A stretch of 32,291 nucleotides of DNA from Candidatus Rokuibacteriota bacterium (GTDB taxonomy: Bacteria; Methylomirabilota; Methylomirabilia; Rokubacteriales; CSP1-6): contig JBOHPM010000002.1 of the NCBI GenBank assembly GCA_050731715.1, positions 1 through 32,291 of the forward strand. The letters run 5' to 3'. A program made the translations under genes and the position numbers. Within the stretch, counting starts at the first letter, position 1; each line of letters begins with the position of its first letter. This document shows, one piece after another, positions 3,095 to 27,865 of this stretch. The notes beneath the pieces were generated by a model. The model had not been told where the DNA came from. It did not search any database and saw only the letters and a program-made list of their open reading frames with translations.

Positions 3095-3904
3095 TCACGG
3101 TGGGAAGATGGCCTCACGTTCTGACTCTGAGCCGCCTCGGAATTCGTTTTGCCGAGTTGTCTTCCCATGCGGCAGAGAAAGTCCACACGCACTTCTTTGA
3201 CGAGCGCGTCCATTGGCATATTTGCAGTGTCCGGCGAGCGGGCATTGCTGGCACTGTGGGTCCTTGATCGTGCACAGCATCGCGGCTAGGTCCAATAGTG
3301 CCCAGTTGAGCTCGGCCGCGTGCTTACCGCGTATGATGACTCGCGACACGGACTGAAGATGCGGGTCGTCACGGAGGTCTGCCAACCTGCGGGGTCCGAA
3401 CAACCGTTCCAGCACTCGTGCCATGTTCACGTCGAGTAGTGGCTCCGCCTTGCGACCGGAGAAGAGAAGGATGGAGCTCGCGACGTATTGGCCCACCGCG
3501 GGCAAGCTCTCGATCTCCTCCCGTGAGTGGGGGAACTGGCCGTCTCGAGAGGCCATCTCTCGCGCCAGAGCCGCAAGGGATGATGCACGTCGGCGCCAGA
3601 GGCCGATCGGCTTAAGGCAATTTCCGATCTGTTCGATGCTAGCATCGGCGATAGCCTGCCACGATGGAAAGCGAGTCGTGAATTCGTTGAAGAAAGCGCC
3701 GACGGTCTGGGCTCTGGTTCGTTGCAGCAGGATCTCTGCAAGGACGCGCTCGTAAAGACTCGTTCCCTCTTCTCGCCAGGGAAATCTTCGGCCGCTTGAC
3801 TTGAACCACCGTAGTAGAGCGCGACGAATTGCCGCAGCCGTACGCGGTGAGATCCCAACGCGGTGGATCTCGAACGGTCGCGATTTTCGTCCCGGTCGTC
3901 TCAC
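3095..3904 (-). CDS. HhH-GPD superfamily DNA glycosylase with [4Fe-4S] cluster loop (Nth/MutY family, Mig-type T:G mismatch glycosylase signature)
   Basis: Motifs: FPWR, LYERVLAEILLQRT, HhH LPAVGQYVASSILL, catalytic Asp in LLDVNMARVLER, and C-x6-C-x2-C-x5-C (CTIKDPQCQQCPLAGHC). Tyr140 (3485..3487) sits at the position of EndoIII Lys120, where MutY has Ser and Mig.MthI has Tyr. The GTG start at 3904 overlaps the upstream TGA (GTGA). Confidence 0.9.
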   Translation of the reverse strand: MRRPGRKSRPFEIHRVGISPRTAAAIRRALLRWFKSSGRRFPWREEGTSLYERVLAEILLQRTRAQTVGAFFNEFTTRFPSWQAIADASIEQIGNCLKPIGLWRRRASSLAALAREMASRDGQFPHSREEIESLPAVGQYVASSILLFSGRKAEPLLDVNMARVLERLFGPRRLADLRDDPHLQSVSRVIIRGKHAAELNWALLDLAAMLCTIKDPQCQQCPLAGHCKYANGRARQRSACGLSLPHGKTTRQNEFRGGSESEREAIFPP

Positions 3905-6900
3905 GTCCTCGTGAAGATCCGCGCCGCGCCGCCGTGCTGTGTCGCGCGCGGTCGCACGCGGATTTGCCGCGGCACAGCAAATAGTCCCTGCGTTGACGTG
4001 TTTGATTGCGCAAGACAGTGTCCCGGCTTCATGTCTAGTAACCTGTGGCCGCGGAACTCCGGGGCCACGCCTTCTAAATCCTGGACGTTTTCCCTGGTCC
4101 CGAGGTTGAAGACGAACCGGGTGGTCACGAAGCGGCTAATCCCCGACGGGATCGAGCGGACGTCTTGGGTGGCGAAGACGTAGGACGTCCCCTCGTGTCG
4201 CATCTGGCGGATGCGCGACTCCATGCGTTCGCCGAACGCCTCGCTCATGTACTCATGCGCTTCATCGAAAATGACGATCTTATTGAACTGCCCTTGGATG
4301 CGGCTGACGTGATTCGCGCAAACGAGGAAGAACCTGAGGGCGTCATCCTTGTTGAACAGCGGCTGGCGTAGGTCGACGATCACGACGCGGCCGGGCCGCA
4401 GCAACTGCCCGAAGTCCACCCCACGTCCTTCGGAAATGTAGCGGCGAACGAAGTCAAAGCGCAGGCGGGCTGCGGATCGACTCTGCCCGCTAAGCCGGTT
4501 CGCGACCTCGTGGTCAAGTTGATCGAGGGTGACCTCTCCTGCGGCTCGCAGGTCAACCAAGGTATTTCGAATCGTCCGCGCGAACACGGCCTCGCTACCC
4601 GGCTCTCCCATGAGAAGTTCCCAGTCCTCCACGTCGAGAACCCGTGGGTCGAAGAACAACTCATTGGCCTGGATCGCGTTGTACTCTTGGGCCCGCGCAG
4701 GCCGTAGTTCCCCCGGCAAGCAAAGGATGCGGATGTCCGAGACCGCTGCGGCGTGCGCCCGGTACTCCGAGGCGAGGCGTTCAACGTCAAGTGCGTCGTC
4801 GTTAGGGAACGCGAATGAGTTCAGCTCGAAACGGTCAGACGCGTTCCGACGGTAGTTGAAGATGACCACGGCGAGGGGGGCCGGCAGCGAATTCACCCCG
4901 GGAATAGGGAGCACAGCAGACTCGACTATCGTTCCAAGCAAGTAACTCTTGCCTGAGCCCATGTAGCCAAAAATCCCGAGCGTCTTCGGATGGTCCAGGT
5001 CAAGTGCGACTAGTTCGTTGCCCCCGGAAAGCCGACCAACGGCAGTCCATCTTGTACTTAGCGAGGACCAGCCGATGACGAAACGCGGCGTCTCAGTCTC
5101 TTGCGGCGACGTTGACGCCTCAACTGTTGTCGGTGCGACCCCTTTCACACCGGCGGACTCCAATGTCTCCGAAGCAGGCGCCGTTGCAGGCGGGGGACTA
5201 CTAATGGGTGGTCCGGGGGGCTCATGGGGGACGGGGCGATGTGTTCCCCGTGCCTCCACCGCGGCGGCAGCTTCCACAGTCGCGGGGCCGGCCGAAATCG
5301 ACTCACCACGAGAGGCCAACGCTGCCTCACCGCTCGCGTCGAGGCCAAGCAGCGATGCGAGTTCATCTCGATTTGGCGGAACGCTTGTGGACCCGGCGGC
5401 ACACTTAGCGAAGCACGCTCGGATCACCTCATCCAGTTCGCCTCGGGTCTCGTTGTCCGCTTTCTGCATCGCCGTCGCATGCCACCAGAGGCCCGGTACC
5501 GCACACGGATCAATGTAGATTTCCCGAGTCTGGAGTGAGCCCACGACATGAGGAGGGTGCGGGTCGATCACGCATGGCCTCGCGGCGGTGTTGATGCAGC
5601 CAGGCGCAAACCAGAGGACGATCGGATCACCGACACCGATATGGAATGGAGCGGCAAGGATCTCCGACAGGATGGTGGACCGCCATAATGCGGCCGGTGG
5701 GTTCGGCGAAAAGCTCATAGCCAGGTCAACCAGCGTCGCAAGCCCTAGCCGCCTCAGGTAGCGCAATGCCGCCTCGCCAGGATCCGTGCCGGTGACGCTC
5801 GCGATGAAGTCCTTCAGCCAAGTGACCGTGTCGGCCAGCTGCTCACGGGCGTGCCTCAGCTCCGGGTTGGACGCGCCCGGGATTTTCTCCGGCGTCGCCG
5901 GCATCCCATGATGTTTGACCTCGGTCGGGACGAGGCACAGACTGAGCGCTCCGTCATCGCCCCGCGAAACGGCAAGGGCGAGCATGTCCGCCCGCAGCTC
6001 AAGGGCCCTACCGGCTAGCCCTTGGAGAATCGGCTCGACAGGGTCCAACGGGAGGACACCGTATACGAGGGGGCGTCGTTCCGCAGGCAACGCGCCGAAA
6101 GGCCCGACACCCTTGTTGGTCGATAGCACCTGAGTGGCGTAGAAAAAACCGGCGGCGGCGCTCTCCTGCGTGCCGCTCTCGGCATTCAGAGCGGCAAGAC
6201 CGATCCCCCGCTGACCGAGAACAGCGAGTAACTCCTCAGCGTTAGCCTGGGAAATGGCTTGGCGAGCGTGCAGCGCTGTCGTCAGCGACGCAGGCACACG
6301 CGCAATAACGTAGTATGGCCGCCGAGCCAAATCCGCGGCCCTTTTTTCGGTCACCATCCACGACGGTCGCCATTCCCACAGTAGACGTCGACCAGATGTG
6401 GCGGGCACGCCCGCGACGAGCGTGGCGAGTAGGGACGGGTCGACATTGAACGTCCCAAGCACTTCCCACTCCGCGCCGCGACCGATGCCGAGGGCGTGCA
6501 GCTGGGGGTTCGCTCGCAGGCAAAGCTTGTCTTCGCTGGCGGGTGCTTCAAGTAAGCGTAGCAGCGACGCCAGGCCAAGGATGTCCTCCCTGTCTCTCGG
6601 CAGGAAGTTTTGATCGAGCTGCGTTCCGGACAGGTCGGCAGGCAGGAATCGACGGAGCGGCAAAATACCAAGAACGCCATACGCCGCGCCAATCGTCACG
6701 GCCAAGTGAACAGTTGCGTTTTCCACGAGGGCGATGTCGGCATTACCGGGCGGCGCGGCAGGAGTATACACTCGCCACTCAAACGACCGATCCCGCTCCT
6801 GGTACCGCCGTCTCGCGAAGAGGGTGTCGCGCGTCGGCGGGTCGCCGCGGCGATCGAGCGAATCCCATACCCTCGCGCCGCCCCCTAGCGAAGACATTCC

Positions 6901-9819
6901 CTGCAAATCGCCGGCTCCAAGAAGGTCGAGAAGCGTATCGTCGATCTCCTTTGACCGCGGCGCTTCGCCGACCGAGCGGACGTCCACTTCGAGCGCGTTA
7001 AGGTGCGGGTGAACCGCAAGGTGATCACGCAGCGCTCGCTCTACTACGCGCGCGTTAATGCCTGTCTTGCCACCCCACGGGAGCGGTTGACCGCCTCCGA
7101 TCACCGGAAGATCGACTGTACCGGCGGGGCCAAGGACCGCGAGTGCACTCCAACCGATGAAATCCTGTTCCGGTCCAGGATCAATGGGGACGGCGACGAG
7201 CCAGCGACGCTCGCCCGCAGGGTTCAGTGTCGTCCCGACCGCGGGGATGTTCCAGCCTTCGAGTAGGCCGAGAAGCCCGTGATCGACCCTGCTCGATCTG
7301 CCGATCGCGGTCACGGCGTAGCCCCAGGCGAGCCGAGCTGGATGGAGCGGTGAGAGGAACACCGCCTGGACTTGCCCGAAGTTCGCCCCGCCCGTACCGT
7401 CCACCACCACTACCGAGAACGGGTACGACGCCCAGAACCGGTCGGCCGGGCTATTGACCCGGGTGGCCGCTTCGATGAGCGCACGGTGCTCTTCGAGGAC
7501 GGCGCGTATCGTGGCAGCATCGATCAGGCTCGGGTCGACGCCGCTAAGCCAAAGAGTCTCCGCGCCAGATCGAAGGCCGAGCGCCGCACACGCTTGGCCC
7601 ATACGAACCATAAAAGCGCCCCACTCTGGAGTGCCGATCAGGGCCGGCGTAGGCCCGTCGCCGATACCTGGCAGCACGAAGTTTTCCGGCCGGGCGAAGA
7701 GAATGCGGGGGGCTGGGCCGCCGTGATGCGGCTGCCAGATAATCGGCTCGTTAGAACCGGCTATGACGTACTGGTACAGGGAATCGAGTGCCGCGGGTGC
7801 CGACCCGCACAGCACGGGCGTAACACTGCTCTGGTACTGTCCGAGAACGCTTTGACGAGCTGCGGCAGCCGGTGGGCGCCGCCCAGCAGGGAGGCCACGC
7901 ACCGCGGACAAAATGCCGGAGGAAAGGTTATTCGATCGTTCCCTGACGTGGAATACAGCCACATCCCTGCCGTGAACAGGATGCGTGTCGGAGATGACAA
8001 CGCCATCGTCGAGGTCGTGTTCGACCAACGGAAATAGGCCGCCGGTTGACGGCGGGAACGCGATTCCCGTGACCGCGGGCTCGCCCACGTCTCGAAAAGC
8101 CGCAGCCCACGGCTCCAGGACGCCATCGTAGACGCGCACCTGATAGCGCCCCTCCTCGCCGAGGAGGATTGTCGGTGTGGTCGCCGCGGCCCACGATGTT
8201 TGGCCGGCGGCGGTTGCAGTGAACGTCTCCTCGTCGTCCGGACCCACCGCCTCGAGGTTTCCATCATCGATGACCAGGACGGTGGGGGAGAATGGCGAGG
8301 GGACGATGACCTTGATCTCGGTCTCAACTCGCCTGGGAGCGTCCCACTCGCCGCCGTGTCGTAGCCTGACAGCAAGGGTCACCCTGAGTTTTTGCTCGGG
8401 GCTCCACTCCCCGGAAATGTCATTCGACTGCGGGCTCCGTTTGGCGGTGTACTCGATCTGTAAATCGCAAGTAATTCGTAGCTGCCCGCTGAGGCTTGCG
8501 ACCGTCTGAAGCTGGCTGAACGTGCATCCCTTCATCTTCAGGTTGATACTCGCCGGCGCTACCCACGCGTCTCCTTCGTTGGCCGACGTCGGCTCCGCCT
8601 CGGCGACGAAAAGCGCTCTCCAATCCTCCTTGTAATGCAGTCCGACGCCGGTGAGGGTCACCCTCGCTCGCCATCTCGTCGGTGTGGGTGCATGAGATAC
8701 AACGCCGATACGCGTATCGAGGACGAACTCATTAGCCTCGGGCTCCGCCAGCGGTCGGAACCCCGGGCACGTGGGGTCCGGAGACAACGGCACCGACTCG
8801 CGGAGGCGCGCTAGTGCCTTCTCAAGGTGCTCTGTTGTGACGCCCCACCACGAGGGGCGATCCGGCGCCGAGGTGTTCGGAATCGTTGCAGACAGAAGCG
8901 TCGGTGACGGTGGCGATGCGAAGACAGCAGCGCCGACTACGGGTGCTGGAGAATCCAATGGGAGCATCTGGAGACGGTTCCAGTCGAGGTCTCGCCACGG
9001 GGTCAACTTCACCGGACCGACGCTCTCACGGTCAAGGGCGAGTAACAGTTCCGACACGCCGCCGTCGCGGAGGAGCAGCGATTGGGTGATGCCGTCCCAG
9101 AGGTCGCTGGCCTTCTCCATCTGCGTCAGCGGAACTCTTCGGGGAGCCTCGAGAAACGGGTTGGCATCCTTAACGAGCGCAGCCGGCAACGGCAGCCCGG
9201 ATAGCCGGACAACTTCCCAGGCGTGGCGCGGCGCCACGACGCCTGAAACCGAAAAGGAGGCTAGCCCGGCGTCGAGATTGTCCAGCATCGACGCGACATG
9301 CACGAGGAATCGGTCGCTCCAGTGGACGCCGGGCGTGTTGCCGGCTCTCTCGAACGACCTGCACAGCACCTCGCTAACCCAGGTGGTCGCTTCTAGGAAG
9401 GCCTCGTACGCGTCCCCGTTCGGAAGCCAATCGCGGTGCTCCCACAGCTCACGAACACACGCACGCACTATGAGAGGCAGGCTACACTCTCCTCCCCCAG
9501 CGCCCGGGAACCGCCTGGAAATGAATGGCCGAACAACGCTCTGGAAAGATGAGTCGGGCTCGTGCAATCCTCGCCGCCAGACGAACACGCGGTCCTCATC
9601 GGTCCGCCACGCGAGTAACTGGCGCCAACCAATCGTGACGTTCCCCAGCCCGGGTTCCGCCGCAGCCAAAGAGACAAGGAACGCCCGGTTCGGAGCCATC
9701 GTGTTGGCGTACTCGACGAGCGCAGTCATCTCCGCGGTCAACGGCCCAGGCAATTCAACGGAGTACAATCCACGGAGCGACGAGAGGTAACGGGCAATGG
9801 CGCGTCCCAGCACTGGCAT
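3901..9819 (-). CDS. Giant 1972-aa protein with C-terminal HerA/DUF87-type (FtsK-HerA superfamily) ATPase; DptH(DndH)-like architecture
   Basis: ATG 9819 lies 6 nt after the upstream stop. The C-terminal ~370 aa carry Walker A LGIFGYMGSGKSY (4945..4968), Walker B KIVIFDEAHEYM (4261..4278) and RHEGTSYVFATQDVRSIP. A Pro/Ala/Ser-rich linker sits at about 5085..5335. In the N-terminal ~1500 aa the only motif I see is a candidate PD-(D/E)xK (ADMLALAV...LCLVPTEVK, 5914..5990). The DptH assignment is architectural only. Confidence 0.9.
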   Translation of the reverse strand: MPVLGRAIARYLSSLRGLYSVELPGPLTAEMTALVEYANTMAPNRAFLVSLAAAEPGLGNVTIGWRQLLAWRTDEDRVFVWRRGLHEPDSSFQSVVRPFISRRFPGAGGGECSLPLIVRACVRELWEHRDWLPNGDAYEAFLEATTWVSEVLCRSFERAGNTPGVHWSDRFLVHVASMLDNLDAGLASFSVSGVVAPRHAWEVVRLSGLPLPAALVKDANPFLEAPRRVPLTQMEKASDLWDGITQSLLLRDGGVSELLLALDRESVGPVKLTPWRDLDWNRLQMLPLDSPAPVVGAAVFASPPSPTLLSATIPNTSAPDRPSWWGVTTEHLEKALARLRESVPLSPDPTCPGFRPLAEPEANEFVLDTRIGVVSHAPTPTRWRARVTLTGVGLHYKEDWRALFVAEAEPTSANEGDAWVAPASINLKMKGCTFSQLQTVASLSGQLRITCDLQIEYTAKRSPQSNDISGEWSPEQKLRVTLAVRLRHGGEWDAPRRVETEIKVIVPSPFSPTVLVIDDGNLEAVGPDDEETFTATAAGQTSWAAATTPTILLGEEGRYQVRVYDGVLEPWAAAFRDVGEPAVTGIAFPPSTGGLFPLVEHDLDDGVVISDTHPVHGRDVAVFHVRERSNNLSSGILSAVRGLPAGRRPPAAAARQSVLGQYQSSVTPVLCGSAPAALDSLYQYVIAGSNEPIIWQPHHGGPAPRILFARPENFVLPGIGDGPTPALIGTPEWGAFMVRMGQACAALGLRSGAETLWLSGVDPSLIDAATIRAVLEEHRALIEAATRVNSPADRFWASYPFSVVVVDGTGGANFGQVQAVFLSPLHPARLAWGYAVTAIGRSSRVDHGLLGLLEGWNIPAVGTTLNPAGERRWLVAVPIDPGPEQDFIGWSALAVLGPAGTVDLPVIGGGQPLPWGGKTGINARVVERALRDHLAVHPHLNALEVDVRSVGEAPRSKEIDDTLLDLLGAGDLQGMSSLGGGARVWDSLDRRGDPPTRDTLFARRRYQERDRSFEWRVYTPAAPPGNADIALVENATVHLAVTIGAAYGVLGILPLRRFLPADLSGTQLDQNFLPRDREDILGLASLLRLLEAPASEDKLCLRANPQLHALGIGRGAEWEVLGTFNVDPSLLATLVAGVPATSGRRLLWEWRPSWMVTEKRAADLARRPYYVIARVPASLTTALHARQAISQANAEELLAVLGQRGIGLAALNAESGTQESAAAGFFYATQVLSTNKGVGPFGALPAERRPLVYGVLPLDPVEPILQGLAGRALELRADMLALAVSRGDDGALSLCLVPTEVKHHGMPATPEKIPGASNPELRHAREQLADTVTWLKDFIASVTGTDPGEAALRYLRRLGLATLVDLAMSFSPNPPAALWRSTILSEILAAPFHIGVGDPIVLWFAPGCINTAARPCVIDPHPPHVVGSLQTREIYIDPCAVPGLWWHATAMQKADNETRGELDEVIRACFAKCAAGSTSVPPNRDELASLLGLDASGEAALASRGESISAGPATVEAAAAVEARGTHRPVPHEPPGPPISSPPPATAPASETLESAGVKGVAPTTVEASTSPQETETPRFVIGWSSLSTRWTAVGRLSGGNELVALDLDHPKTLGIFGYMGSGKSYLLGTIVESAVLPIPGVNSLPAPLAVVIFNYRRNASDRFELNSFAFPNDDALDVERLASEYRAHAAAVSDIRILCLPGELRPARAQEYNAIQANELFFDPRVLDVEDWELLMGEPGSEAVFARTIRNTLVDLRAAGEVTLDQLDHEVANRLSGQSRSAARLRFDFVRRYISEGRGVDFGQLLRPGRVVIVDLRQPLFNKDDALRFFLVCANHVSRIQGQFNKIVIFDEAHEYMSEAFGERMESRIRQMRHEGTSYVFATQDVRSIPSGISRFVTTRFVFNLGTRENVQDLEGVAPEFRGHRLLDMKPGHCLAQSNTSTQGLFAVPRQIRVRPRATQHGGAARIFTRT

Positions 9820-9825
9820 GGCGGC

Positions 9826-11370
9826 TCAGAACCCCGCTCGGATCACGAGCGCGTCGTCGGCGTCGGGGCTATCGGTGCTCAACCCCGCCTCCTCCAGCAT
9901 GCCTACTATCACCGATCGCTCTACTCGAACACCGAGAGACACGAGATCTCGTCTCAGGTCTCCGAGCGTACAGGACCCGCCGGGCCTGACGCAGAGCAGA
10001 CTGGTAATGACGACGAGCCACTCCGGGCCCGGGCGGAACCACATGTGCCGCCCGCTGCTCCTAGCGAGGTAGTAGAAGTCTGCGTGGTCAACGGAATCGT
10101 CGTCTGATGAACGCGGTAGAAGGAGATACCGGACAAATTCTTTCTGGTTGTTCGCCATTGACGATGTGACCCGGATCGAAGTGCCGATCGACGAGAGTTG
10201 CTCTCCGGTGAGAGCCTCGACCCACAGTTCGATCGAGTTCGCGAGCGAGGCTGCGGTAGGCAGCGTGTCCCCGATTCCGGCGTTGAGTAGCTGATCTCGT
10301 GCCTTCCATCCGCGCGCAATCAAGTCCGAGGTAGCAGGCCAAATGCCCTTCTGGCTCGCCGGCACTTCGGGCGGCTCAATAGTCGCTAGGACAGCTCCCT
10401 CGCTGAGGAGTGAATTGATCGGACTCGGGCTGATGGGCGGACTTCCTGCCAACCGGTTCACAACCATCTGGTGAAGCCTGCAGAAGAACTCCGCTTCCCA
10501 CAGGTACGCGAACGCGAGGCCCGTCCGCAATAAGCAGAGCGACCAGTCGACGAACCTCCGCGCAGGCAAGCGGTCGTGCCACTGGCTGGCGGGATCGCAA
10601 AGACACAACCACTTTGTCCAGAACCAGGCAAACGGTGCCTGCCGATAGGCGCTAAGCGCGGACTTTTCGCGCTCGATGGTTACCGCCGGCGTGACAGGTG
10701 GCCAGGCTGGCCATTCGCCTGACGGCTTCGAGTATTTTGCGGGGAGGCCTGCCCAAGCGTGAGCGGCGATTCGAGGGAGAAGCCATTCGATGGCCCCGGT
10801 TGCACCCTTGCGCGGGTCGGGTGTTTCGGTGAAGAGGGCAAGAAACGCGCCCGCGGCGGCTCCTTCTTTCAGCGCTCCGCCGAGCCATGCCATCGACTCG
10901 ATCGCTCTAGCGAGGTTCGCAGGGATCGGCTTATTTACTAACCCGTGTAGTGTCTGGAGAGCCACCGTCGCCGGGTGAATGGGGACGCACGCGGTCGACT
11001 TGTCACCGCGTGCTTGCGGTGCCCTGAGGGATTCGAGAAGCGGCCGGACAGGGCCACGTGCCCCGGTAGGCACAGTCACGAGCCCAGTGACGTTAAAGGA
11101 TTCGGCGAGGGGTATAGTCTCGAGCGTGCGCGGACTTCCGCCCCGGAGCTTACGGGGCACTAACCGTTCCGGTTCGGGGAGATCGTCAGGATCCTCTCCC
11201 TTCACCTTGAGGCGCGAAAGATGCTCGATCATCTTGTTGCCATTGATGTCCGAAGCGAGCGACGAGCCTTCGGATCGCCAGAGCAAGTCGGTCAGTAGCG
11301 ACTCGGTCTGCTTCGCGTATTCTGGGCGGGGTAAATGCCCAAACAGTCTGGCGATCCAGGTCTCCTGCAT
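9826..11370 (-). CDS. 514-aa protein of unknown function; positional equivalent of DptG
   Basis: The track ORF is 545 aa (start 11463) and would overlap the upstream gene by 85 nt. Preferred start is ATG 11370 (MQETWIARLF...), 8 nt after the upstream TAA. The stop lies 6 nt before the next ATG. A Trp/Cys/Leu-rich core is present (FAWFWTKWLCLCDPASQWHDRLPARRFVDWSLCLL). No catalytic motif recognised. Confidence 0.8.
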   Translation of the reverse strand: MQETWIARLFGHLPRPEYAKQTESLLTDLLWRSEGSSLASDINGNKMIEHLSRLKVKGEDPDDLPEPERLVPRKLRGGSPRTLETIPLAESFNVTGLVTVPTGARGPVRPLLESLRAPQARGDKSTACVPIHPATVALQTLHGLVNKPIPANLARAIESMAWLGGALKEGAAAGAFLALFTETPDPRKGATGAIEWLLPRIAAHAWAGLPAKYSKPSGEWPAWPPVTPAVTIEREKSALSAYRQAPFAWFWTKWLCLCDPASQWHDRLPARRFVDWSLCLLRTGLAFAYLWEAEFFCRLHQMVVNRLAGSPPISPSPINSLLSEGAVLATIEPPEVPASQKGIWPATSDLIARGWKARDQLLNAGIGDTLPTAASLANSIELWVEALTGEQLSSIGTSIRVTSSMANNQKEFVRYLLLPRSSDDDSVDHADFYYLARSSGRHMWFRPGPEWLVVITSLLCVRPGGSCTLGDLRRDLVSLGVRVERSVIVGMLEEAGLSTDSPDADDALVIRAGF

Positions 11371-11378
11371 AAGTGGCC

Positions 11379-13622
11379 TTATCCAGGTTGCACGCGCAGG
11401 GCGGCCGTCCCCGTCGGGCTCGGCACAAGCTGAAACGCGTCCCCCTTCTCGTCCGTGAACCAAGCGTTGATCCGCCGTAGGCGCCCTCGGCTTATGAGCG
11501 ACGCCCTTGCTCGCTCGATCCTGGCGAACGCCGTGTCGCCGATCTCGGTAAAGGCGTTCGTAGTTCCGTCAGCGTGCAGAAGCGACTCCCTGGCCACAGC
11601 GAGATCGACGGCCAGCGTCGCAAGCGGCTCCGTTGACGCTCCCCGGTGCCGCATTCTCACCTCGGCGATGAGGGCATCGCCCTGCGCGACGACCTGTACG
11701 TCCAGCTCATTTGGCTGCACGGTGACGAGAAGGGTCTCGCTCGGGAGGTCTCCCGTGAGGCAGTATGTCCTTGGTCGTAGCGGTGCCGTAAAGACCTTTT
11801 TGCCCCCTGCCGCCGGGATAATGAGATTGTTTATTCCGTCACCGAGCGGGAGTCGCTGACCGCCTAGTAAGGCGCTTGCCTGTTCAGCCAACCAGGCTCC
11901 GATCGCTTCCGCGTACCGGACATGCCCAAGCGCCGTCCCCACTTGACGGAGTACCATGACTGCTCTCCACCGTCGGAGGACCCGGACCCTTGAGACGGCC
12001 GCGCGTGTTCCCTTGGGCAGCTCGGCGGCGATCTCCTCGCGGAGAACGCGATCGAGCTGCTTCTCAATCTCTGAACTCGCCGCCTGCGGAATTTCAACCC
12101 ACGAGACAACTTGCTCCGCCGGCGAGACGATATCCAGCGATTCGACAGCGTCCATGACTCGCTTCCGAAGGCCGTCCCAACTCTCGGTGTCGAGCGCTGG
12201 GTCAATGTCCGCGAATGCTTTCTCGAAGGGTTGCAGCCGGGCGGCGTCACCAGACGGGACGAGCAGATCGATGATCGCGCCGAAGACGCTGTCCTTTAGC
12301 CTCGCGTCGGCGACGTCTCTGGTCACAAGGAAGCCGCCGCCGGGGTAGATGTTCGTGTAGATCCGATGCCGGGCGAGCCGAACGGTCACGGTCTTCTCTC
12401 CAGCGCCGCTCCCTAATCGCTGATGGGTGTCGGCGACCCATTGACATGGGTGCGTACCGGCTAGCCACTCCTCTTCCGCGGTCCCCATGATCGCCAGTGA
12501 AACGTGGCCAAGGAGGTCCCGATAAGTAAGCCTTCGCGTCGCGGCGATCTCCGCCGCACGGAGCGTATCCAGGAATCGGTGGCGAAGCGCGGGTTCCCGC
12601 AGCCAGACGGAGTTCTGTGTGAACGGGCACAGGTCGTAGGCTGAACACACTTGTCCCGATACCGCGTCTCTGCAACCGCCGCCCTCCCATCTGGGGGCGT
12701 CGGCATACATGGTCACAAGCCCACCCGCGACAGTGTTGTCCCTCGTCATGTCGGAACTCACGAGCCGGCCGAGTGTCAGGTACTGCGCGACCTCAGGCAG
12801 GGGTGCCGAAAAATCCACCACGCGGCCGCCGGCGCCCGGGATCGGCTCGAGCAAGGACAGCATGTCGAGGAAAACGACCCGAACACAGATGCCTACTGGG
12901 TGCTTACTCTCGGTTACGAGGCGAACCGTGAATTGTCCGTAGTGCGGTCTCTCGGAAGTAGGCTGCAGCACGTTATCCAGTGACCCATCGGCGTTCTCTG
13001 AGGGCGCTGACAGCCAGCGGATCATCGATGCGGCAAGACGCCCCTCTAGAGGCTCTGTAGACCAATCGGCCACGGCCCGAAGCGCGCCGCTTTCCTCGAC
13101 GAGAATTCCGCGGTTAACATTCACGAACAGCGAAGTCGGCTTTCCCCGGGCGGTGCGCCCGAGGGCGTCTGCGATGTCGTGAAAGAGAGAACCGGGCGAG
13201 CTCTCAACTGCTGCGACATCCTGTCTAGGAATCGACGCATCGTTCACGAACGCGAGTTCCAGGCTGTTTGCAAGCCGATCGGCCTCCGCGGGCCAGCCTA
13301 TCGGAATGGTTCTCGGAACGGGATCACCGGGACCTCGGGATGGCAGGACAATACCGAGCCTCCTGGCGAGTGACCGTAGGGCTTCGGACTTTCCGTTCCC
13401 TGGCCCGCCGACCAGAAAGCACCAGTCGATCTCTGTCGCGGCTGGCGACCAACCTGTGTGTCTGCTCGTGATGTGTTGCAGCACGTCCTCGATACCCGGG
13501 GGGAAGTCGCCTAGCACAAGAGGATCGGGTGTTCCTGACGTCGGCAGGGCGACCGTCCCTCCCTGGCCATAGGAATGCGTCAGAAGCCAGTGAACGATCT
13601 CATTCCGAACGTAGGAACTCAT
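11379..13622 (-). CDS. 747-aa P-loop NTPase; DptF-like position and N-terminal motif layout
   Basis: Walker A FLVGGPGNGKSE (13386..13409), then LELAFVNDASIP and SLFVNVNRGILVEE blocks. A Cys cluster C-x8-C-x5-C (GGGCRDAVSGQVCSAYDLCPF) sits at 12627..12674. ATG 13622 lies 9 nt after the MTase TAG. The DptF-like call rests on my memory of the GxxGxGKSE ... DA(T/S) ... (I/V)NxG(M/I)L pattern and is unverified. Confidence 0.9.
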   Translation of the reverse strand: MSSYVRNEIVHWLLTHSYGQGGTVALPTSGTPDPLVLGDFPPGIEDVLQHITSRHTGWSPAATEIDWCFLVGGPGNGKSEALRSLARRLGIVLPSRGPGDPVPRTIPIGWPAEADRLANSLELAFVNDASIPRQDVAAVESSPGSLFHDIADALGRTARGKPTSLFVNVNRGILVEESGALRAVADWSTEPLEGRLAASMIRWLSAPSENADGSLDNVLQPTSERPHYGQFTVRLVTESKHPVGICVRVVFLDMLSLLEPIPGAGGRVVDFSAPLPEVAQYLTLGRLVSSDMTRDNTVAGGLVTMYADAPRWEGGGCRDAVSGQVCSAYDLCPFTQNSVWLREPALRHRFLDTLRAAEIAATRRLTYRDLLGHVSLAIMGTAEEEWLAGTHPCQWVADTHQRLGSGAGEKTVTVRLARHRIYTNIYPGGGFLVTRDVADARLKDSVFGAIIDLLVPSGDAARLQPFEKAFADIDPALDTESWDGLRKRVMDAVESLDIVSPAEQVVSWVEIPQAASSEIEKQLDRVLREEIAAELPKGTRAAVSRVRVLRRWRAVMVLRQVGTALGHVRYAEAIGAWLAEQASALLGGQRLPLGDGINNLIIPAAGGKKVFTAPLRPRTYCLTGDLPSETLLVTVQPNELDVQVVAQGDALIAEVRMRHRGASTEPLATLAVDLAVARESLLHADGTTNAFTEIGDTAFARIERARASLISRGRLRRINAWFTDEKGDAFQLVPSPTGTAALRVQPG

Positions 13623-13631
13623 TGGTCTGGC

Positions 13632-14918
13632 CTACTCGCGCCGGACTTCGCGACTTATCGACAGCTCATGGGACACATCCTTAAGCAAGCGGCCGAGCAC
13701 CTCCGCAAGAAACGGCGGCACGGCGTTCGCCACTTGTGTGTACCGTGGACATTCTCGCACCCGCAGCTCCCCCCCCGTCGTGTACTTTCCCTTGAAGGCA
13801 TACCAGTCGGGAAAGGACTGGAGCCTGGCATACTCTCGAACCGTGAGGATCCTCGGCTCGGAGTAATGAATCAGGTCGTCGGGCAACGACGTCAGCGTGT
13901 GTGAGGGCTGCTCAGGATCCAGGGGCACGATGCAATTCTTCTTGAGCCCGAGACGCTTCCGCTCAGCGGGCGTCATCTGTACTCCGCGTCGGCACGTGGC
14001 TAGGATCTTCGCGAAGCGGTCCCGGATCTCCTCCCGGTGCTTCGCCAGGCGCATGCTGTTCGGAGAACTACCATTCATTGAGCCATGCAAGAGCGATTGA
14101 TAAACCGTGATGGGGAAGGTATAGGAGACCTGCTGGTAACCCCGGACATCAGGGCACGGTGCGAGTTCCTTTTGTACGGTCTCCAGGTCTGAGATCGCCT
14201 CCTGAACCCCGACGGGGCGATCCAACGGCAGTTCCTTTTCCGCCAGGAACTCCTTGCGGCGCTCCTCCAGCCGCGCATAAGGGTCATAATTGACGCGGTT
14301 CCTAAGTAGCCTCTTATCGATCGCAATCATGATGTATCGCGGCCTAAACTGCGGCACGCCGTAGTCCAACGCGCGGACCAGCTTCGGATACACGACGTAA
14401 CCGAGGGCGATCAGCCGCTCTTGGATCCTTACCGAAAATGGAGTTGGCGGGCGTCCCGGGCCGCGCTTCCTCGGCCTGTGCTTCTTCCCGAATTCGATGG
14501 CGACGCCGCGAACGTTCTCGAGGAACAAGAGGCGCGGGCGGAGAAGGGCGACGATCTCGAGATAGTGCTTGAAGAGGCCGTTGCGGGGGTCATCCTTTCT
14601 CCTGCGACCGGCGAAGGAGAAGCCTTGGCAGGGTGGGCCTCCCGCAATTAGGTCGACCTTCCCGCGTAGTGACTTAAGATTCCTCCTGTGCTGCTTCAAG
14701 AAGCCCCGTATTTCGCAGGACTCCCCGGGAAGCCAAGTGGGCCAGTCGTAGGACGGCATCTGCTCGAGCAAGTTGTGCTTGAGTGTCTCGAACGCGAACC
14801 GGTCAGCTTCTATGGCGAACAAGCCCTTCCAACCAGCCTGTGTCAAACCGAGCGATAGGCCGCCGCACCCCGCGAATATGTCGATGAACCTCAACCGGCT
14901 CGTGTCGCCGTCGCTCAC
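13632..14918 (-). CDS. DNA (cytosine-5)-methyltransferase, Dcm family
   Basis: Motif I FIDIFAGCGGLSLG, IV GGPPCQGFS, VI LFLENV, VIII QFRPRYIM, IX TVREYARLQSFPDWY, X TQVANAVPP. The TRD contains SHTLTS. GTG start at 14918 with GGGGGA about 7 nt upstream. First gene of the operon. Confidence 0.95.
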   Translation of the reverse strand: MSDGDTSRLRFIDIFAGCGGLSLGLTQAGWKGLFAIEADRFAFETLKHNLLEQMPSYDWPTWLPGESCEIRGFLKQHRRNLKSLRGKVDLIAGGPPCQGFSFAGRRRKDDPRNGLFKHYLEIVALLRPRLLFLENVRGVAIEFGKKHRPRKRGPGRPPTPFSVRIQERLIALGYVVYPKLVRALDYGVPQFRPRYIMIAIDKRLLRNRVNYDPYARLEERRKEFLAEKELPLDRPVGVQEAISDLETVQKELAPCPDVRGYQQVSYTFPITVYQSLLHGSMNGSSPNSMRLAKHREEIRDRFAKILATCRRGVQMTPAERKRLGLKKNCIVPLDPEQPSHTLTSLPDDLIHYSEPRILTVREYARLQSFPDWYAFKGKYTTGGELRVRECPRYTQVANAVPPFLAEVLGRLLKDVSHELSISREVRRE

Positions 14919-15203: not shown

Positions 15204-15232
15204 ATCATATGTTTAGCTATCCTGGGTGTCAA
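15204..15232 (-). promoter_or_regulatory. Candidate sigma70-type promoter for the methyltransferase operon: TTGACA - 17 nt - TATGAT
   Basis: On the minus strand the -35 TTGACA is at 15232..15227 and the -10 TATGAT at 15209..15204, with an exact 17-nt spacer. It lies in the AT-richest patch I noticed in the 431-nt traG-MTase spacer. It would give a leader of about 280 nt. Consensus match only. Confidence 0.45.
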
Positions 15233-15349: not shown

Positions 15350-16741
15350 CTACGGCTGGCCCGCGCTGCCCCGGGCCCCGCCCGACACAAGCGACCCCAA
15401 GAACGGGATCCGCCCGGGCGCCCAGCTGCTGAAGTTCGCGCCGATCCGGTGGCTGGCCACGCCGAAGAGCATGCTGACCAGCGCGGGGACCGAGAAGATG
15501 GTCAGCGCGGTGATGAACTGCAGGAGCGCCGGGTAGCGGGCGCTGTTGGGATCCGCGATCGCGCCACTCGCGATGAAGACCGGGAGAATCTTCTCGTGGG
15601 CCGTGGCAATCATCGCCCAGAAGACCGGCCACATCTTGAGCGACAGCAGCAACATCAGGTAGGTCGCGAAGCGCCCAAACTGGCCGGGCCAGAGCGCGAA
15701 GGCCAGCATGATCGGGAATACCGCGTAGGCAACCATCATCGTATAGCCGTAGAACACGTAGGCGGAGCGCTGGAAGAACTCGACGATCTGTCCCATGACC
15801 ACCGGGTTCCAGAGGCCGGCGATCGTACCGAGGACGAACGACGAGGCGCCCTGGAGCCAGGCCACCGGATCCAGCCAGTTGCGGCTCGGGCTCGAGGGGT
15901 CGAGCTGGCCGCCGCCCGGCGGCTCCACGGCCTCCCGATAGTTGCGGAGCGCGACGTTGACGACCCACTCGTCGCTGCCGAAGGTCCGGCTGAGCCACGC
16001 TAGGCTCGCGTTGACCCAGTCGGTGGCTGGCGTGATGTGGGTCCGCGCATACGTGGCAAGGGCCCCTTGGAGGTCCTGCCACCGAGTAGTGCAAGTCACG
16101 GCCTGGCCATTCGGGTCGGGGAACGCCAGCGTCGCGTAGTACTGCTGAAGCGCCGAGGCGGCCGGTGTGTTGACGCTGAGCGCATCCCGCTGCTCGGGCG
16201 GCGTATCCGCCTCCCACGCCTGCAGCGCCGCGCCGTAGCAGGTGTCCAGGAAGGTCCTGAGCCGGCCCTGGAGAGCGGGGTCGCCGTCGAACTTCTCGGC
16301 TGCAAGGCGGTTGACGACCACCAGCGCCGCGAAGGGTCGCTCGGCGAAGTCGCGCTTGATCATGTGGATCATCGACTGCGCGAGGCTGTGCATCGCGTCG
16401 TTGACCAGCACGAATCCCGCCGGCAGCGACGCGCTGGTCGTCGGCTGCAGGCTGGTGACGGCCGGGGCCACGGCGGCGTTGGCCTCCTCGGTAATCGACC
16501 TCTTCATCTCCACGGCCCGCGACGAGGCCCCGAACGCGAAGGCCAGGCCCGACGCGAGGACGAAGTGCATCGCCATGGGCAGGAGCGAGCCGTGCGGCAT
16601 GGTGCGGACTGCGGTCATGAACAGGCCCAGCAGGATGATGACCACGTAGACCCCACCGTTCCAGAACATGGCGTGAAGCTGCGAGCCCCAGGTCGCGCCG
16701 GTGAAGGCCAGGATCGAGTCGATCGGCGTGAAACCGGTCAT
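15350..16741 (-). CDS. traG: F-type T4SS TraG, N-terminal (pilus assembly) domain only, polytopic membrane protein
   Basis: 463 aa. TraG_N-like blocks: LRTFLDTCYGAAL (compare F TraG FQDYVQNCVMGDI) and C-terminal helices ...AVFPIMLAFALWPGQ...LLLSLKMWPVFWAMI (compare F ...MWLQTWPLLYAILN). The ~480-aa C-terminal mating-pair-stabilisation part of F TraG is absent. Confidence 0.85.
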   Translation of the reverse strand: MTGFTPIDSILAFTGATWGSQLHAMFWNGGVYVVIILLGLFMTAVRTMPHGSLLPMAMHFVLASGLAFAFGASSRAVEMKRSITEEANAAVAPAVTSLQPTTSASLPAGFVLVNDAMHSLAQSMIHMIKRDFAERPFAALVVVNRLAAEKFDGDPALQGRLRTFLDTCYGAALQAWEADTPPEQRDALSVNTPAASALQQYYATLAFPDPNGQAVTCTTRWQDLQGALATYARTHITPATDWVNASLAWLSRTFGSDEWVVNVALRNYREAVEPPGGGQLDPSSPSRNWLDPVAWLQGASSFVLGTIAGLWNPVVMGQIVEFFQRSAYVFYGYTMMVAYAVFPIMLAFALWPGQFGRFATYLMLLLSLKMWPVFWAMIATAHEKILPVFIASGAIADPNSARYPALLQFITALTIFSVPALVSMLFGVASHRIGANFSSWAPGRIPFLGSLVSGGARGSAGQP

Positions 16742-16751
16742 CGAGCGGGGA

Positions 16752-18059
16752 TCACCTCGTCAGCCGGAGCCCGCCGCCGAGGTCGATGGCCGGCTCCTTC
16801 GGCGGCGTGATTGTGGCGCGGCCTCGCGCGGCTGCGCGCTCGGCGCTCGCCTCCTGGTCCATCTCGCGGAGGACTTGCGTGAGGTTGTCCTGACCCTCTT
16901 TGAGGGCCCGCAGGCGCCCGCGCATCGCCTCGAGCGCGCGGATGTGGCGCTCGACCTCCTCGGTGCTCTGGTTGGTGTTGGCCGCGAGCCGGGACAGCTC
17001 GCTGAGCTCCATCTGGAGCACGTAGAGCTGGTACTCGAGCCGGGCGAGCGTGAGCGCGGTGGCGATGCGTTGGATGGCGATGGCGCGCGCGCTCGGGCTC
17101 ATCAGCGACAGCTGCTGGAGCAGCGACCGTGTGATGGGGACGCCCGGGGCCGATACCTTCTGGAGCTCCTCGACCGTCGGCGTCCCGCCGGCCTTGACCC
17201 GGTCGACGAGTGTCGTCAGCTGCTGTCCGTAGTCCTGGTAGAGACGGCCCCACTCCTGCTCGAGGCCATCCGGCTGGAGCTTCTTGAACTCCTGCCGACG
17301 GCCGCTGCTGCTGCCCCGGAAGTTGACGTCGCCGAGGACCGCTTTGGCGAAGCGCTGCGTGTCGTCGTCGGCGCCAACCTGCTTGAGGCCGTCGTCGACG
17401 ATGTTGATGTCGCTGACCTTCCCGAAGTCGAAGCCCACGAGCTCGGTGCTACCGATGCCGCGGCAATCATCCTGGGCGACGTAGCGCGGAACGCCGGCGG
17501 CCGTCTTCTCCTCGATGCACTGCACCTCGCGCTTCTTCCCCATGCGCGAGCCGTAGTCCAGGGCCGCCGCCTCCACCGCCTGGCACTCCGCGGCGCGGGC
17601 CTGGAGTATCCCCGAGGCCATCGACTTGAAGTGCTTGTAGGCGTCGCAGAGCGTCGGCGACAGGTAGCACATGAGGACCAGGGGCGCGGCGGAGATCGCC
17701 GAGGAGGCGAGGTTCTTGAAGTAGCTCTCGAGGGCGTTGACGTCGAAGAGCGCCTTGAACTCGGCTGCGAAGTCGATGCCGCAGCCCTTGCCCGTGCTGC
17801 CGGAGATGGAGCCGATCGTCCCGACGCCACCGCTCGGCGCCGGGAGGGGGAGCCCGGCGCCGCCGCGATAGTTCAGGCCCGACTGCTCCGTGCCCTCGTA
17901 CAGCTGGAACTGTGAGTGCGGCGTGCTTTTCGTGACCGTCTGGTCCCAGAGGTCCGCCGCGCCGACACCGGTGACGGGGCCGACCAAGAGAAGCGAGAAG
18001 ATCGCTGCGATGAACAGGACGACGAGCCACCCCCTGGGGGCGGCGAGCGGGCCGGGCAT
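16752..18059 (-). CDS. traH: F-type T4SS pilus assembly protein TraH
   Basis: Signal peptide (WLVVLFIAAIFSLLLVGPVTGVGA). GKGCGIDFAAEFKALFDVNALESYFKNLASSA...HFKSMASGILQARAAECQA aligns with F TraH NAGCGGIDAYLGSFSFINGEQLQRFVKQIMSNA...FLQKMASDINSMNLSSCQA. C-terminal coiled coil present. Confidence 0.9.
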   Translation of the reverse strand: MPGPLAAPRGWLVVLFIAAIFSLLLVGPVTGVGAADLWDQTVTKSTPHSQFQLYEGTEQSGLNYRGGAGLPLPAPSGGVGTIGSISGSTGKGCGIDFAAEFKALFDVNALESYFKNLASSAISAAPLVLMCYLSPTLCDAYKHFKSMASGILQARAAECQAVEAAALDYGSRMGKKREVQCIEEKTAAGVPRYVAQDDCRGIGSTELVGFDFGKVSDINIVDDGLKQVGADDDTQRFAKAVLGDVNFRGSSSGRRQEFKKLQPDGLEQEWGRLYQDYGQQLTTLVDRVKAGGTPTVEELQKVSAPGVPITRSLLQQLSLMSPSARAIAIQRIATALTLARLEYQLYVLQMELSELSRLAANTNQSTEEVERHIRALEAMRGRLRALKEGQDNLTQVLREMDQEASAERAAARGRATITPPKEPAIDLGGGLRLTR

Positions 18060-18062
18060 GGC

Positions 18063-19028
18063 TCAGCTCCTCAGCTGGCAGGTGTCGCCGGGCAGCTGAC
18101 CGCCGGATTCGAGCGGCGGAATGGGCTGGCGACTGGCGAGGGCGGCCAGCACAGTGACGAGGCGAGCCGGCGGCTGGAGCCCGCGCGCGACGTGGAGCAG
18201 CCTCGAGCCCTCGTAGAAGAAGATCGTCGGATAGCTCCGCACGCCGAGCCGCTGACGGAGGTCGGTGTCTCCCTGCACGACCGGGAAGGCGAGGGCTAGC
18301 CGGAGCGCCTGGACGTCATCGGGTTTCGAGTCGAACGCGACGCCCCGTACGGGGACGCGCGTCGCGAGCTGGTTGATGATCGGTGTCTGCTGCCGCGAGT
18401 ACGTGCACCAGGTCGCGAACGCGTAGACGATCGAGATCCGGCGCGCTGCCGTCTCGCCAGAGGCCGGCCTCTGCACCAGGGTGATCCCCGGCGCGGCCGG
18501 CGGCACGAGTGGCAGCGGGAGGAGTTGCGACGTCCCACGGTCTACCGCGGCATCGGACGCCGGCGGTGCGGCCGGGACCGTGATCGGTCCCTGGGTCGCG
18601 ATCCCGAATTGTTGCGCGGCGACGTCTCGCATGACGTTCACCGCCTCGTCCATTCGGCGCATCCGCGCCAGGTTCCACGCGAGGTACGCCCGCGCGTTCT
18701 CGGGCGTCGGCTTCTCGAGGAAGTCGCGAACGGGCTTCGGCGGCAGATACACGCGGAGTTGCCCGTCGGGCCCACGGACGGGCTCGGCCCAGATTGACTC
18801 CTCGACCTGCGGTACTTCCGCCGACGGCGCCTGGGAGGCTTCTCGCGCCGGCTCCGCCTTGTGTGCGCCCTCCGTGCTTGGAGCCTGGGTGGGCGCTGTC
18901 TTCGGACACGGCTCGAAGAAGACAATCTCGTGGCACGAAAAGAAGCCCCCGAGTTCGGCCGCGAGCACGCCGCGGCCGCTTCCTCCGACAAGCAGGACGA
19001 GACCCAGGGTGATGGTCACGCGCTTCAT
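18063..19028 (-). CDS. traF: F-type TraF/TrbB-like periplasmic thioredoxin-fold protein (CxxS, no CxxC)
   Basis: Signal peptide MKRVTITLGLVLLVGGSGRGVLA. The C-terminal half IVYAFATWCTYSRQQTPIINQLA...RVPVRGVAFDS...RQRLGVRSYPTIFFY parallels F TraF IMFFYRGQDPIDGQLAQVINGF...LSVIPVSVDG...AQRLGVKYFPAMMLV. Confidence 0.72.
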   Translation of the reverse strand: MKRVTITLGLVLLVGGSGRGVLAAELGGFFSCHEIVFFEPCPKTAPTQAPSTEGAHKAEPAREASQAPSAEVPQVEESIWAEPVRGPDGQLRVYLPPKPVRDFLEKPTPENARAYLAWNLARMRRMDEAVNVMRDVAAQQFGIATQGPITVPAAPPASDAAVDRGTSQLLPLPLVPPAAPGITLVQRPASGETAARRISIVYAFATWCTYSRQQTPIINQLATRVPVRGVAFDSKPDDVQALRLALAFPVVQGDTDLRQRLGVRSYPTIFFYEGSRLLHVARGLQPPARLVTVLAALASRQPIPPLESGGQLPGDTCQLRS

Positions 19029-19086
19029 GCGCGGCGTTGTCCCGAACGCCTTCCGGCGCAGGCGACTTCCGTCAGCAAACCGGTAA

Positions 19087-20635: not shown

Positions 20636-20643
20636 GGTCACCC

Positions 20644-27861: not shown

Positions 27862-27865
27862 GCCG

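Follow-up and report, generated by a model that had tools for sequence, protein, structure and literature searches.

A DndFGH-like gene trio linked to a cytosine-5 methyltransferase and a repair glycosylase: a candidate 5-methylcytosine-keyed restriction system in a Rokuibacteriota bacterium and related loci

The window, which here means the whole analysed stretch of 32,291 nucleotides from a Candidatus Rokuibacteriota bacterium (GenBank assembly GCA_050731715.1, contig JBOHPM010000002.1), contains five closely spaced genes on the minus strand (14918 down to 3095), which were recognised from the listing and translations of its open reading frames (ORFs) and which we named g1 to g5. The first encodes a DNA cytosine-5 methyltransferase (C5-MTase) and the last a glycosylase of the HhH-GPD/[4Fe-4S] type. 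Judging from profile, motif and model comparisons, we conclude that the three genes between them form a divergent branch of the DndFGH superfamily that lies beyond the reach of the curated models. We consider it probable, by analogy with DndFGH, that the operon is a self-contained restriction-modification (R-M) system in which the C5-MTase would stand in place of dndABCDE and restriction would be keyed to 5-methylcytosine (m5C). The broader proposition, that a widespread DndFGH-type class (at least ~660 protein clusters at 50% identity, in bacteria and archaea) may be natively keyed to m5C and not to phosphorothioate (PT), seems to us evenly poised. The five genes are as follows (aa, amino acids).

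13632-14918, minus strand: g1, 428 aa, GTG start, first gene of the operon; DNA cytosine-5 methyltransferase
11379-13622, minus strand: g2, 747 aa; predicted DndF-like derived P-loop kinase with an enlarged helical lid
9826-11370, minus strand: g3, 514 aa; predicted DndG-like DNA-binding subunit
3901-9819, minus strand: g4, 1972 aa; predicted DndH-like giant with DNA-binding and methyltransferase-like regions, PD-(D/E)xK nuclease, linker and HerA-type ATPase
3095-3904, minus strand: g5, 269 aa; HhH-GPD/[4Fe-4S] monofunctional glycosylase without the MutY C-terminal domain

An earlier, sequence-only reading of this DNA had described a single co-directional expression unit with gaps of 9, 8 and 6 nucleotides and a GTGA overlap, and the junctions read directly from the sequence agree with it exactly: TAG, 9 nucleotides and ATG between g1 and g2; TAA, 8 nucleotides and ATG between g2 and g3; TGA, 6 nucleotides and ATG between g3 and g4; and the GTGA overlap of g4 and g5. 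The length of g3 was taken from the ATG at 11370, as the mechanical ORF reaches a TTG at 11463 and would overlap g2. The gene call of the collection for g4 (P0121) begins 30 codons later than the ATG at 9819, which was kept as the start because homologues align over all 1972 aa and conservation of P24 reaches 93%. The five genes have not come together by chance, since their arrangement was found again in dozens of unrelated genomes, and by computation the predicted catalytic motifs are intact in all five proteins.

The reference dptFGH genes were those of a Massilia plasmid, of an Aliivibrio plasmid that also bears dndBCDE, and of E. coli, and the hallmarks of each protein were taken from PMC10853773. 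Direct searches gave little: phmmer of g2, g3 and g4 against PDB sequences returned nothing useful, BLASTP of the window proteins against the three canonical DptF/G/H sets gave weak ATPase matches only, and the curated-family scans (Pfam, NCBIfam, PADLOC) found no SspFGH, Druantia or DISARM component among g2 to g4. As the same scans gave no DptF/G/H match either, direct membership of the curated DptFGH families was rejected. A relationship was detected by comparing profiles in a three-by-three control, in which each cognate pair (F with F, G with G, and H with H after removal of the motor) scored better than all the non-cognate pairs. Together with motifs and structural comparison, this points to a computed homology that is remote, and the proposal in the sequence-only reading of a DptF/G/H-like trio in the same gene order holds in that remote sense.

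The case is clearest for g2. Its GGPGNGKSE (72-80), AFVNDAS (124-130) and FVNVNRGIL (166-174) blocks and its C317-x8-C326-x5-C332 cluster had all been picked out from the letters alone, and their residues are mostly 94-100% conserved among 77 relatives, with C326, C332 and C393 at 94-96%; C317 is at least 90% conserved in the close family. Two features can be placed on the window.

13386-13409, minus strand: Walker A motif of g2 (G72-GPGNGK-S79), with G72, P74, G75, N76, G77 and K78 100% conserved in the 77 relatives
12444-12674, minus strand: cysteine cluster C317, C326, C332 and C393 within the lid of g2, a putative Zn site suggested by conservation

A Zn-chelating insert in the lid has been described for some versions of DndF (PMC10853773). 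No match to g2 was obtained at E<=1 in Pfam, NCBIfam or PADLOC, and none of 31 family members matched DptF or PADLOC DndF at E<=10. The 77-sequence g2 profile, aligned by hhalign with three DptF sequences, gave a probability of 71% and an E-value of 3.6e-5, colinear over 25-734 and 16-534, respectively, and the non-cognate controls scored 0.6. This broader profile was required, as the 31-sequence close family reached a probability of only 16%. The aligned motifs are as follows.

GGPGNGKSE of the g2 family aligns with GSSGDGKSE of DptF
NDAS of the g2 family aligns with LDAT of DptF
VNVNRGIL of the g2 family aligns with VGINIGMI of DptF
RRLTYRDLLGH, the lid motif of the g2 family, aligns with QFVTARGLLDL of DptF
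IDPA of the g2 family aligns with FDPA of DptF

By sequence, g2 bears all the hallmark motifs of DndF. Some members of its family (P0049, P0288 and others) carry N-terminal extensions of 130-320 aa, for a total length of up to 1076 aa, and in this they recall DndF, for which variable effector domains at the N-terminus have been reported.

The sequence-only reading had found no recognisable motif in g3, and indeed no family match to it was obtained in Pfam, NCBIfam (including the curated DptG model) or PADLOC, even at E<=1. Its AlphaFold model is confident, with a predicted local distance difference test score (pLDDT) of 90.6 and a predicted template modelling score (pTM) of 0.92. The sole notable PDB match of this model is 7exx, "structure of DndG", with a probability of 0.98, an E-value of 0.017, 327 aligned columns and a template modelling score (TM-score) of 0.24-0.28; the next match had an E-value of 1.7. 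The structural comparison names DndG, a DNA-binding protein with multiple winged helix-turn-helix (wHTH) domains, as the top match at high probability, with the E-value and the TM-score pulling the other way.

The giant protein g4 gave no match to the curated DptH or the PADLOC DndH model at E<=0.01; the latter does match the giants of more distant, Dcm-linked sister-clade loci, at 1e-60 to 1e-71. Three of its regions carry the comparison with DndH.

5914-5988, minus strand: nuclease core of g4, D1278...E1300-x-K1302, from conservation and alignment with DptH
5080-5382, minus strand: Pro/Ala/Ser/Thr-rich linker of g4, residues ~1480-1580, at the junction of nuclease and motor, from sequence
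3919-5040, minus strand: C-terminal HerA/DUF87-type ATPase of g4, residues 1594-1967, from the DUF87 and PADLOC mad8 matches

In 66 relatives of g4, D1278 is conserved in 100%, E1300 in 98%, K1302 in 95% and Q1327 in 100%, and the core aligns with the stretches SDDVLFVGF, LPLEVKTG and EQA of DptH. Moreover, an invariant FLSPLHPARLAW motif of g4 (the HP motif) pairs at a constant offset with FITPFHPLNLSY of DptH, and is colinear with the nuclease motif. In the N-terminal domain R72 is invariant in the relatives, and a conserved Arg has been described in the N-terminal domain of DndH (PMC10853773). The model of residues 600-1480 (pLDDT 84.8) has folds of S-adenosylmethionine-dependent methyltransferases as its best PDB matches, although these are weak (E 0.17-0.7), and the catalytic motif [DNS]PP[YFW] was found in 0 of the 66 relatives. 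A methyltransferase-like region without its catalytic motif would fit the dead N6-methylase-like domain of DndH, which is accompanied by target-recognition domains.

The C-terminus of g4 scored 23.2 bits against DUF87, which is exactly the Pfam cut-off, and 7.4e-15 against PADLOC mad8, in keeping with the HerA/DUF87-type ATPase that had been read from the letters. Its Walker A motif GSGKS (1621-1625), E1853 and R1874 are present, with G1623, K1624 and S/T1625 conserved at 86-96%; the Walker B motif and the Arg finger are conserved as well, and the family profile matched the DptH C-terminus at 2.8e-32. Additionally, the bridging proteins of L012, L014, L015, L022, L030 and L034, which are 26-32% identical to the middle 700 residues of g4 (E 1e-45 to 1e-74), carry the E. 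coli DptH-type ATPase. The linker between nuclease and motor is the junction at which the relatives of g4 carry differing motors, as listed here.

3919-5040 of the window, g4: HerA/mad8-like motor
L003:13851-19718: FtsK-alpha plus FtsK
L014:12457-18039: TrwB/HerA, DptH-like
L018:7783-13017, L035:13331-18652 and P0148: RuvB-like AAA+ with a RuvB_C winged helix

Since P0148 shares 61% identity with g4 across 76% of its length and yet has another motor, a swap must have occurred between close relatives. Six HerA/FtsK clades have been described for DndH motors, under the term "HerA/FtsK capture" (PMC10853773). The RuvB-like AAA+ motor lies outside these six clades and extends the capture to an AAA+ motor.

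The two outer genes were easier to assign. The g1 product matched PF00145 at 3.4e-49 over model positions 1-320 of 324, TIGR00675 at 2.7e-37 (129 bits, cut-off 100.65) and PADLOC MTase_II at 4.6e-73, and its PDB relatives include M.HaeIII and M.HhaI. The motifs FAGCGG, PPCQGFS, ENV, QFRPR and NAVPP are legible in the translation, so that the earlier statement that g1 carries every C5-MTase motif is borne out by a near full-length match. The g5 product matched HhH-GPD at 3.8e-15, the MutY model at 8e-44 (model positions 2-210 of 277), the PADLOC "type II nicking endonuclease" model at 2.6e-27 and Mig.MthI (1kea) at 1e-26. It has a C-x6-C-x2-C-x5-C cluster and the features of the HhH-GPD fold, including the catalytic Asp and the [4Fe-4S] loop, and the MutY C-terminal (NUDIX-like) domain is absent. 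Of the earlier designation "Mig-type glycosylase", the HhH-GPD/[4Fe-4S] glycosylase stands, whereas "Mig-type" cannot be separated by sequence from the MutY catalytic core, to which g5 scores similarly. The Tyr after the HhH hairpin was tried as a discriminator of Mig from MutY and dropped, since MutY of B. stearothermophilus has the same Tyr. Strong contextual evidence, namely the Dcm partner and the occurrence of Vsr in the equivalent slot of 16 sister loci, suggests that g5 repairs the T:G mismatches that arise from m5C deamination. The idea of a dedicated T:G repair enzyme, already present in the sequence-only reading, is thus upheld by the interchangeability of this slot with Vsr.

In a census of related loci, homologues of g2, g3 and g4 numbered from dozens to more than 100 each, all of them unnamed or "hypothetical". 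A search with the g2-family profile found 659 clusters (50% identity) among 1.84 billion representatives, and a scan of one genome per species gave 80 related loci, from Planctomycetota, Chloroflexota, Alpha-, Beta- and Gammaproteobacteria, Verrucomicrobiota, Acidobacteriota, Gemmatimonadota, Nitrospira, Actinomycetes, Bacteroidota and archaea. The F-G-H order and the sizes (~700, ~510 and 1720-1970 aa) are constant in 81 loci, 66 of which are complete cassettes. A C5-MTase homologue is present in 72 of the 81 loci and, within 10 kb, in 63 of the 66 complete cassettes; it lies directly upstream on the same strand in 48 of the 72 loci with room upstream. As had been pointed out, the window has neither dnd nor ssp genes, and homologues of DndB, DndC, DndD and DndE are likewise missing from all 83 related loci (0 of 83) when 10 kb around the cassettes is searched. 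No sulfur-modification family was found among the 25 most frequent Pfam families of 124 ORFs flanking the related loci.

Of the 65 loci with room downstream, 49 have a glycosylase or Vsr. The slot directly after the giant gene holds a glycosylase in 23 loci and Vsr in 16 (e.g. L083:13468-13908), and the two were never seen together, which suggests that two unrelated enzymes were recruited for the same T:G repair job. The same arrangement can be observed on plasmid pSfreGR64a, where the Prokaryotic Genome Annotation Pipeline (PGAP) lists a DNA cytosine methyltransferase, two hypothetical proteins, an ATP-binding protein and Vsr. The cassette is self-contained, since no extra family recurs in the 124 flanking ORFs, among which the most frequent were integrases (5), HNH (4) and GmrSD (3). 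In Bradyrhizobium sp. USDA 3315, a divergent gene just upstream of the cassette MTase (L001:6552-8204, minus strand) encodes a 550-aa HATPase_c_3 (MORC/MutL-like) protein, which may be part of another methylation-associated defence gene set.

The linkage of the C5-MTase could also reflect two modules that merely travel together, namely a standalone DndFGH-type sensor responding to protein or nucleotide cues, and an independent pair of Dcm and glycosylase or Vsr, a selfish or protective module that would, for example, shield the element against the type II enzymes of other hosts. Dcm-Vsr pairs are common as stand-alone units, and the phylogeny of the MTase is largely uncoupled from that of F/G/H. 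A sensor of this kind is the model of PMC10853773. A canonical dptFGH that is positive with the curated models was also found on a Massilia plasmid with neither dndBCDE nor a C5-MTase within 12 kb (L082:5119-13053; its neighbours are PLD, HipA and patatin), so that truly solitary canonical DptFGH exists too, and one of the related cassettes, L040, is likewise without a C5-MTase. This locus (L040:9254-19623), from a Verrucomicrobia single-cell genome, has F-G-H with no C5-MTase within 10 kb, an HNH-domain protein directly after it and a reverse transcriptase before it. Against such independence, the C5-MTase is kept within 10 kb of nearly all the complete cassettes, across Planctomycetota, Chloroflexota, Proteobacteria, Verrucomicrobiota, Acidobacteriota, Actinomycetes and archaea. 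Where assessable it mostly lies directly upstream in the same orientation, just a few nucleotides away, while the other neighbours vary. Because this adjacency is conserved across phyla, it argues for functional coupling of MTase and FGH, and we regard co-travelling modules as unlikely.

Several points weigh against an m5C-keyed DndFGH-type system. The curated DptF, DptG and DptH models, which the sequence-only reading had proposed as a test, gave no match to g2, g3 or g4. The g2-DptF probability is just 71% and comes from a three-sequence DptF profile, the profile-profile comparison of G with DptG was not significant (E 0.047), the match of g3 to DndG combines a low TM-score with an E-value of 0.017, and the methyltransferase-fold matches of g4 are weak. 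Moreover, DndFGH has been argued to be a standalone sensor without modification (PMC10853773), and the cassettes of L022, L040 and L051 have no C5-MTase. In 60 cassettes (59 related loci and the window) the distances of F, G and H co-vary, with Spearman coefficients of 0.93-0.94, but the divergence of the MTase follows that of F/G/H at only 0.32. The MTase of the window is most similar (57-59% identity) to those of a distant F/G/H clade with the RuvB-like motor, which indicates that the methylase has been exchanged between restriction lineages. The target-recognition region of the MTase, compared with sub-regions of g4, gave partial correlations of -0.07 to 0.25 when the F distance was controlled for, with no clear pattern, the alignments being poor in the variable regions. 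The weak tracking of F/G/H by the MTase, and the lack of a g4 region that tracks it, argue against a simple model of shared specificity.

The mechanism that we favour, m5C-keyed restriction of the DndFGH type, would operate as follows. The g1 product would methylate host DNA, and that of the conjugative element, at a specific motif. The products of g2, g3 and g4 would assemble like DndFGH, for which published work cited in PMC11662687 describes a 2:2:1 F:G:H complex with translocation-coupled nicking. Driven along DNA by the HerA-type motor, the complex would nick or cut unmarked DNA with its D1278/E1300/K1302 nuclease. In the cognate motif, m5C would be read by g3 and the methyltransferase-like region of g4 and would halt the motor on self DNA. 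Finally, g5 would excise T from the T:G mismatches left by m5C deamination, and thereby guard both the genome and the protective sites. Assembly of the complex, read-out of the methyl group, the direction of its effect and the T:G specificity are all proposed by analogy. The notion of m5C as the self mark of a DptFGH-like complex came from the sequence-only reading; comparative genomics has strengthened it, with a near-obligatory MTase in the complete cassettes and no dnd genes, and the self-mark logic itself is what we infer.

The same tight linkage of the MTase would fit equally well a modification-sensing logic like that of SspE, in which the complex would not attack unmethylated DNA of its own accord but would be licensed or activated by m5C on the host DNA, and the mark would be a positional cue and not a shield. 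In the PT-based SspABCD-SspE system, defence needs the modification of the host, and SspE alone is non-toxic (PMC11662687); moreover, frequent exchange of the MTase would be easier if loss of the mark were not lethal. The homologous DndFGH behaves differently: in the absence of the modification it is toxic, and PT sites repress its ATPase instead of stimulating it (work cited in PMC11662687; PMC12707154). The position of the MTase as the first gene of the operon and its nearly invariable retention are likewise what would be expected of an antidote. We therefore consider an SspE-like logic improbable, and prefer the protective role of m5C.

The resemblance to DndFGH/DptFGH under this preferred explanation is extensive. 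Both have three co-directional F-G-H genes with overlapping or near-abutting junctions (8 and 6 nucleotides in the window). In the window family, as in DndFGH, F would be a P-loop kinase of derived type, in which Walker B has an Asn, strand 2 carries an acidic residue and the lid is very large, and G may have a DndG-like fold. H would be a giant that shares with DndH a conserved N-terminal Arg, a putative methyltransferase-like region lacking the catalytic motif, the PD-(D/E)xK motif and, at the C-terminus, a motor of the HerA/FtsK class, which is exchanged between lineages. On the other hand, the proteins of the window family exceed the canonical ones by ~200 aa (F), ~70 aa (G) and ~280 aa (H), the trio is paired with a C5-MTase and a T:G repair enzyme and never with dndABCDE, the window proteins are invisible to the curated DptF/G/H and PADLOC DndF/G/H models, and some relatives have the RuvB-like AAA+ motor.

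The pair of outer genes recalls Dcm-Vsr and M.MthTI-Mig.MthI, in which a C5-MTase is co-encoded with Vsr or with a MutY-like HhH-GPD/[4Fe-4S] glycosylase that lacks the MutY C-terminal domain. In the window, however, this pair brackets a 10-kb three-gene module for putative ATP-dependent restriction, in place of a type II endonuclease or nothing. The CxC-ABC ATPase-DndE systems (PMC10853773) are also Dnd-related, with cytosine methylation in place of phosphorothioation, but there a scaffold on the modification side (DndD/CxC-DndE) recruits the methylase, and cytosine methylases have been reported only with the CxC-DndE modification scaffold; in the window it is the restriction side that is paired, and there is no DndD or DndE. 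MADS (mad1-8; bioRxiv 10.1101/2023.03.30.534895) is likewise a multi-gene system of methylation-based discrimination of self and non-self, and the g4 ATPase matches mad8. It differs in having eight genes, with a mad6-mad8 core and an N6-adenine MTase with a specificity subunit, whereas the MTase of the window is of the C5 type; identity with MADS was rejected, as the motor domain alone is shared and no mad1-7 model matches g1 to g5 specifically. Druantia type II (DruM-DruF-DruG-DruE) and DISARM class 2 also combine a C5-MTase with very large ATP-dependent proteins, and g1 matches DruM and DrmMII. They were rejected as well, since these g1 matches are generic, no DruE/F/G or DrmA/B/C match was obtained for g2, g3 or g4, and no DUF1998 helicase was found.

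In the literature searched there was no description of a cassette of DndFGH-like genes with Dcm and a glycosylase or Vsr, and neither the text nor the supplement of PMC10853773 speaks of Dcm, Vsr or a glycosylase beside DndFGH. The system is not categorically new, as its restriction proteins fall within a superfamily already described and methyl protection had been foreshadowed as an idea. DndFGH ranks among the least understood restriction machines. Two reviews and a dedicated comparative study observe that most DndFGH-type loci occur without phosphorothioation genes, which was either left unexplained (PMC6435447) or taken to mean that DndFGH is "standalone", without an inbuilt modification module (PMC10853773; Rakesh, Aravind, Krishnan, 2024). 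A fixed C5-MTase with a partner for the repair of m5C deamination offers a testable answer for a large divergent branch, namely that the self mark would be m5C. The family is missed entirely by current annotation and by the defence-finder models, and PGAP names its members "hypothetical protein" or "ATP-binding protein". If m5C-keyed restriction is correct, much of the excess of "orphan" or "standalone" DndFGH would be explained, and the cassette would represent a new class of ATP-dependent translocating R-M system based on cytosine methylation. It would also provide a tractable system for studying how DndFGH-type complexes read a modification, as a methyl mark is easily installed and mapped. 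A base mark set by an unrelated and freely exchangeable C5-methylase would then be read by the giant, through its dead N6-methylase-like module, or else by the DndG-like subunit, and the motor for translocation would be a cartridge that can be swapped (HerA, FtsK, TrwB-like or even RuvB-like AAA+). Motor swapping, the RuvB-like AAA+ case included, and the alternation of Vsr with the glycosylase illustrate cleanly how defence systems evolve by modules.

The surroundings of the operon are those of a mobile element. On one flank (15350-29250, minus strand) lie TraL, TraK, a TrbI/TraB-like gene, TraC, TraF, TraH and TraG_N, an F-type transfer region, and on the other flank (1310-2017) a SLT transglycosylase; the operon sits between TraG_N and this transglycosylase. 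Its G+C content (60-65% in the block from 3 to 15 kb) is 5-10% lower than that of the flanks (68-73%), and its closest relatives are in Planctomycetota and Gemmataceae metagenome-assembled genomes. The operon looks like cargo that a plasmid or an integrative and conjugative element (ICE) has acquired recently, and from these closest relatives a Planctomycetota host seemed probable for that element. From the related loci we infer that the cassette is carried along by conjugative elements and defence islands. Such a setting could suit a transfer or competition device of the conjugative element, equipped with a DNA-pumping motor, for the exclusion or destruction of rival plasmids or ICEs, or for post-segregational killing, over anti-phage defence. 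In addition to the location of the window cassette within the transfer region, the homologous cassette of pSfreGR64a is on a conjugative plasmid, integrases, ArdC and DUF932 recur in the flanks, and captured HerA/FtsK motors have been proposed to intercept transferring DNA (PMC10853773). Many copies are nevertheless chromosomal, with ordinary or defence-island neighbours (GmrSD, HNH, HipA, ResIII). We consider this account very improbable as a replacement for m5C-keyed restriction; it concerns the target and not the mechanism, and is compatible with that explanation.

It is worth adding some minor features of the window. One candidate promoter was found upstream of the operon.

15204-15232, minus strand: candidate sigma-70-type promoter, TTGACA-17-TATGAT, 11 of 12 matches, ~285 nucleotides upstream of g1

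It is the sole promoter-like site between 2300 and 15500, a count not above the shuffled expectation, and as the promoter of g1 it is suggestive only; it would imply a long 5' leader before this gene. In the window as a whole, counts of terminators and promoters were not above chance, and no tRNA gene was found. Two long antisense ORFs can also be observed, one of 339 aa opposite g4 (8771-9790, plus strand) and one of 951 aa opposite TraC (22876-25731, plus strand), the latter with no Pfam match; both are most simply regarded as artefacts of high G+C content.

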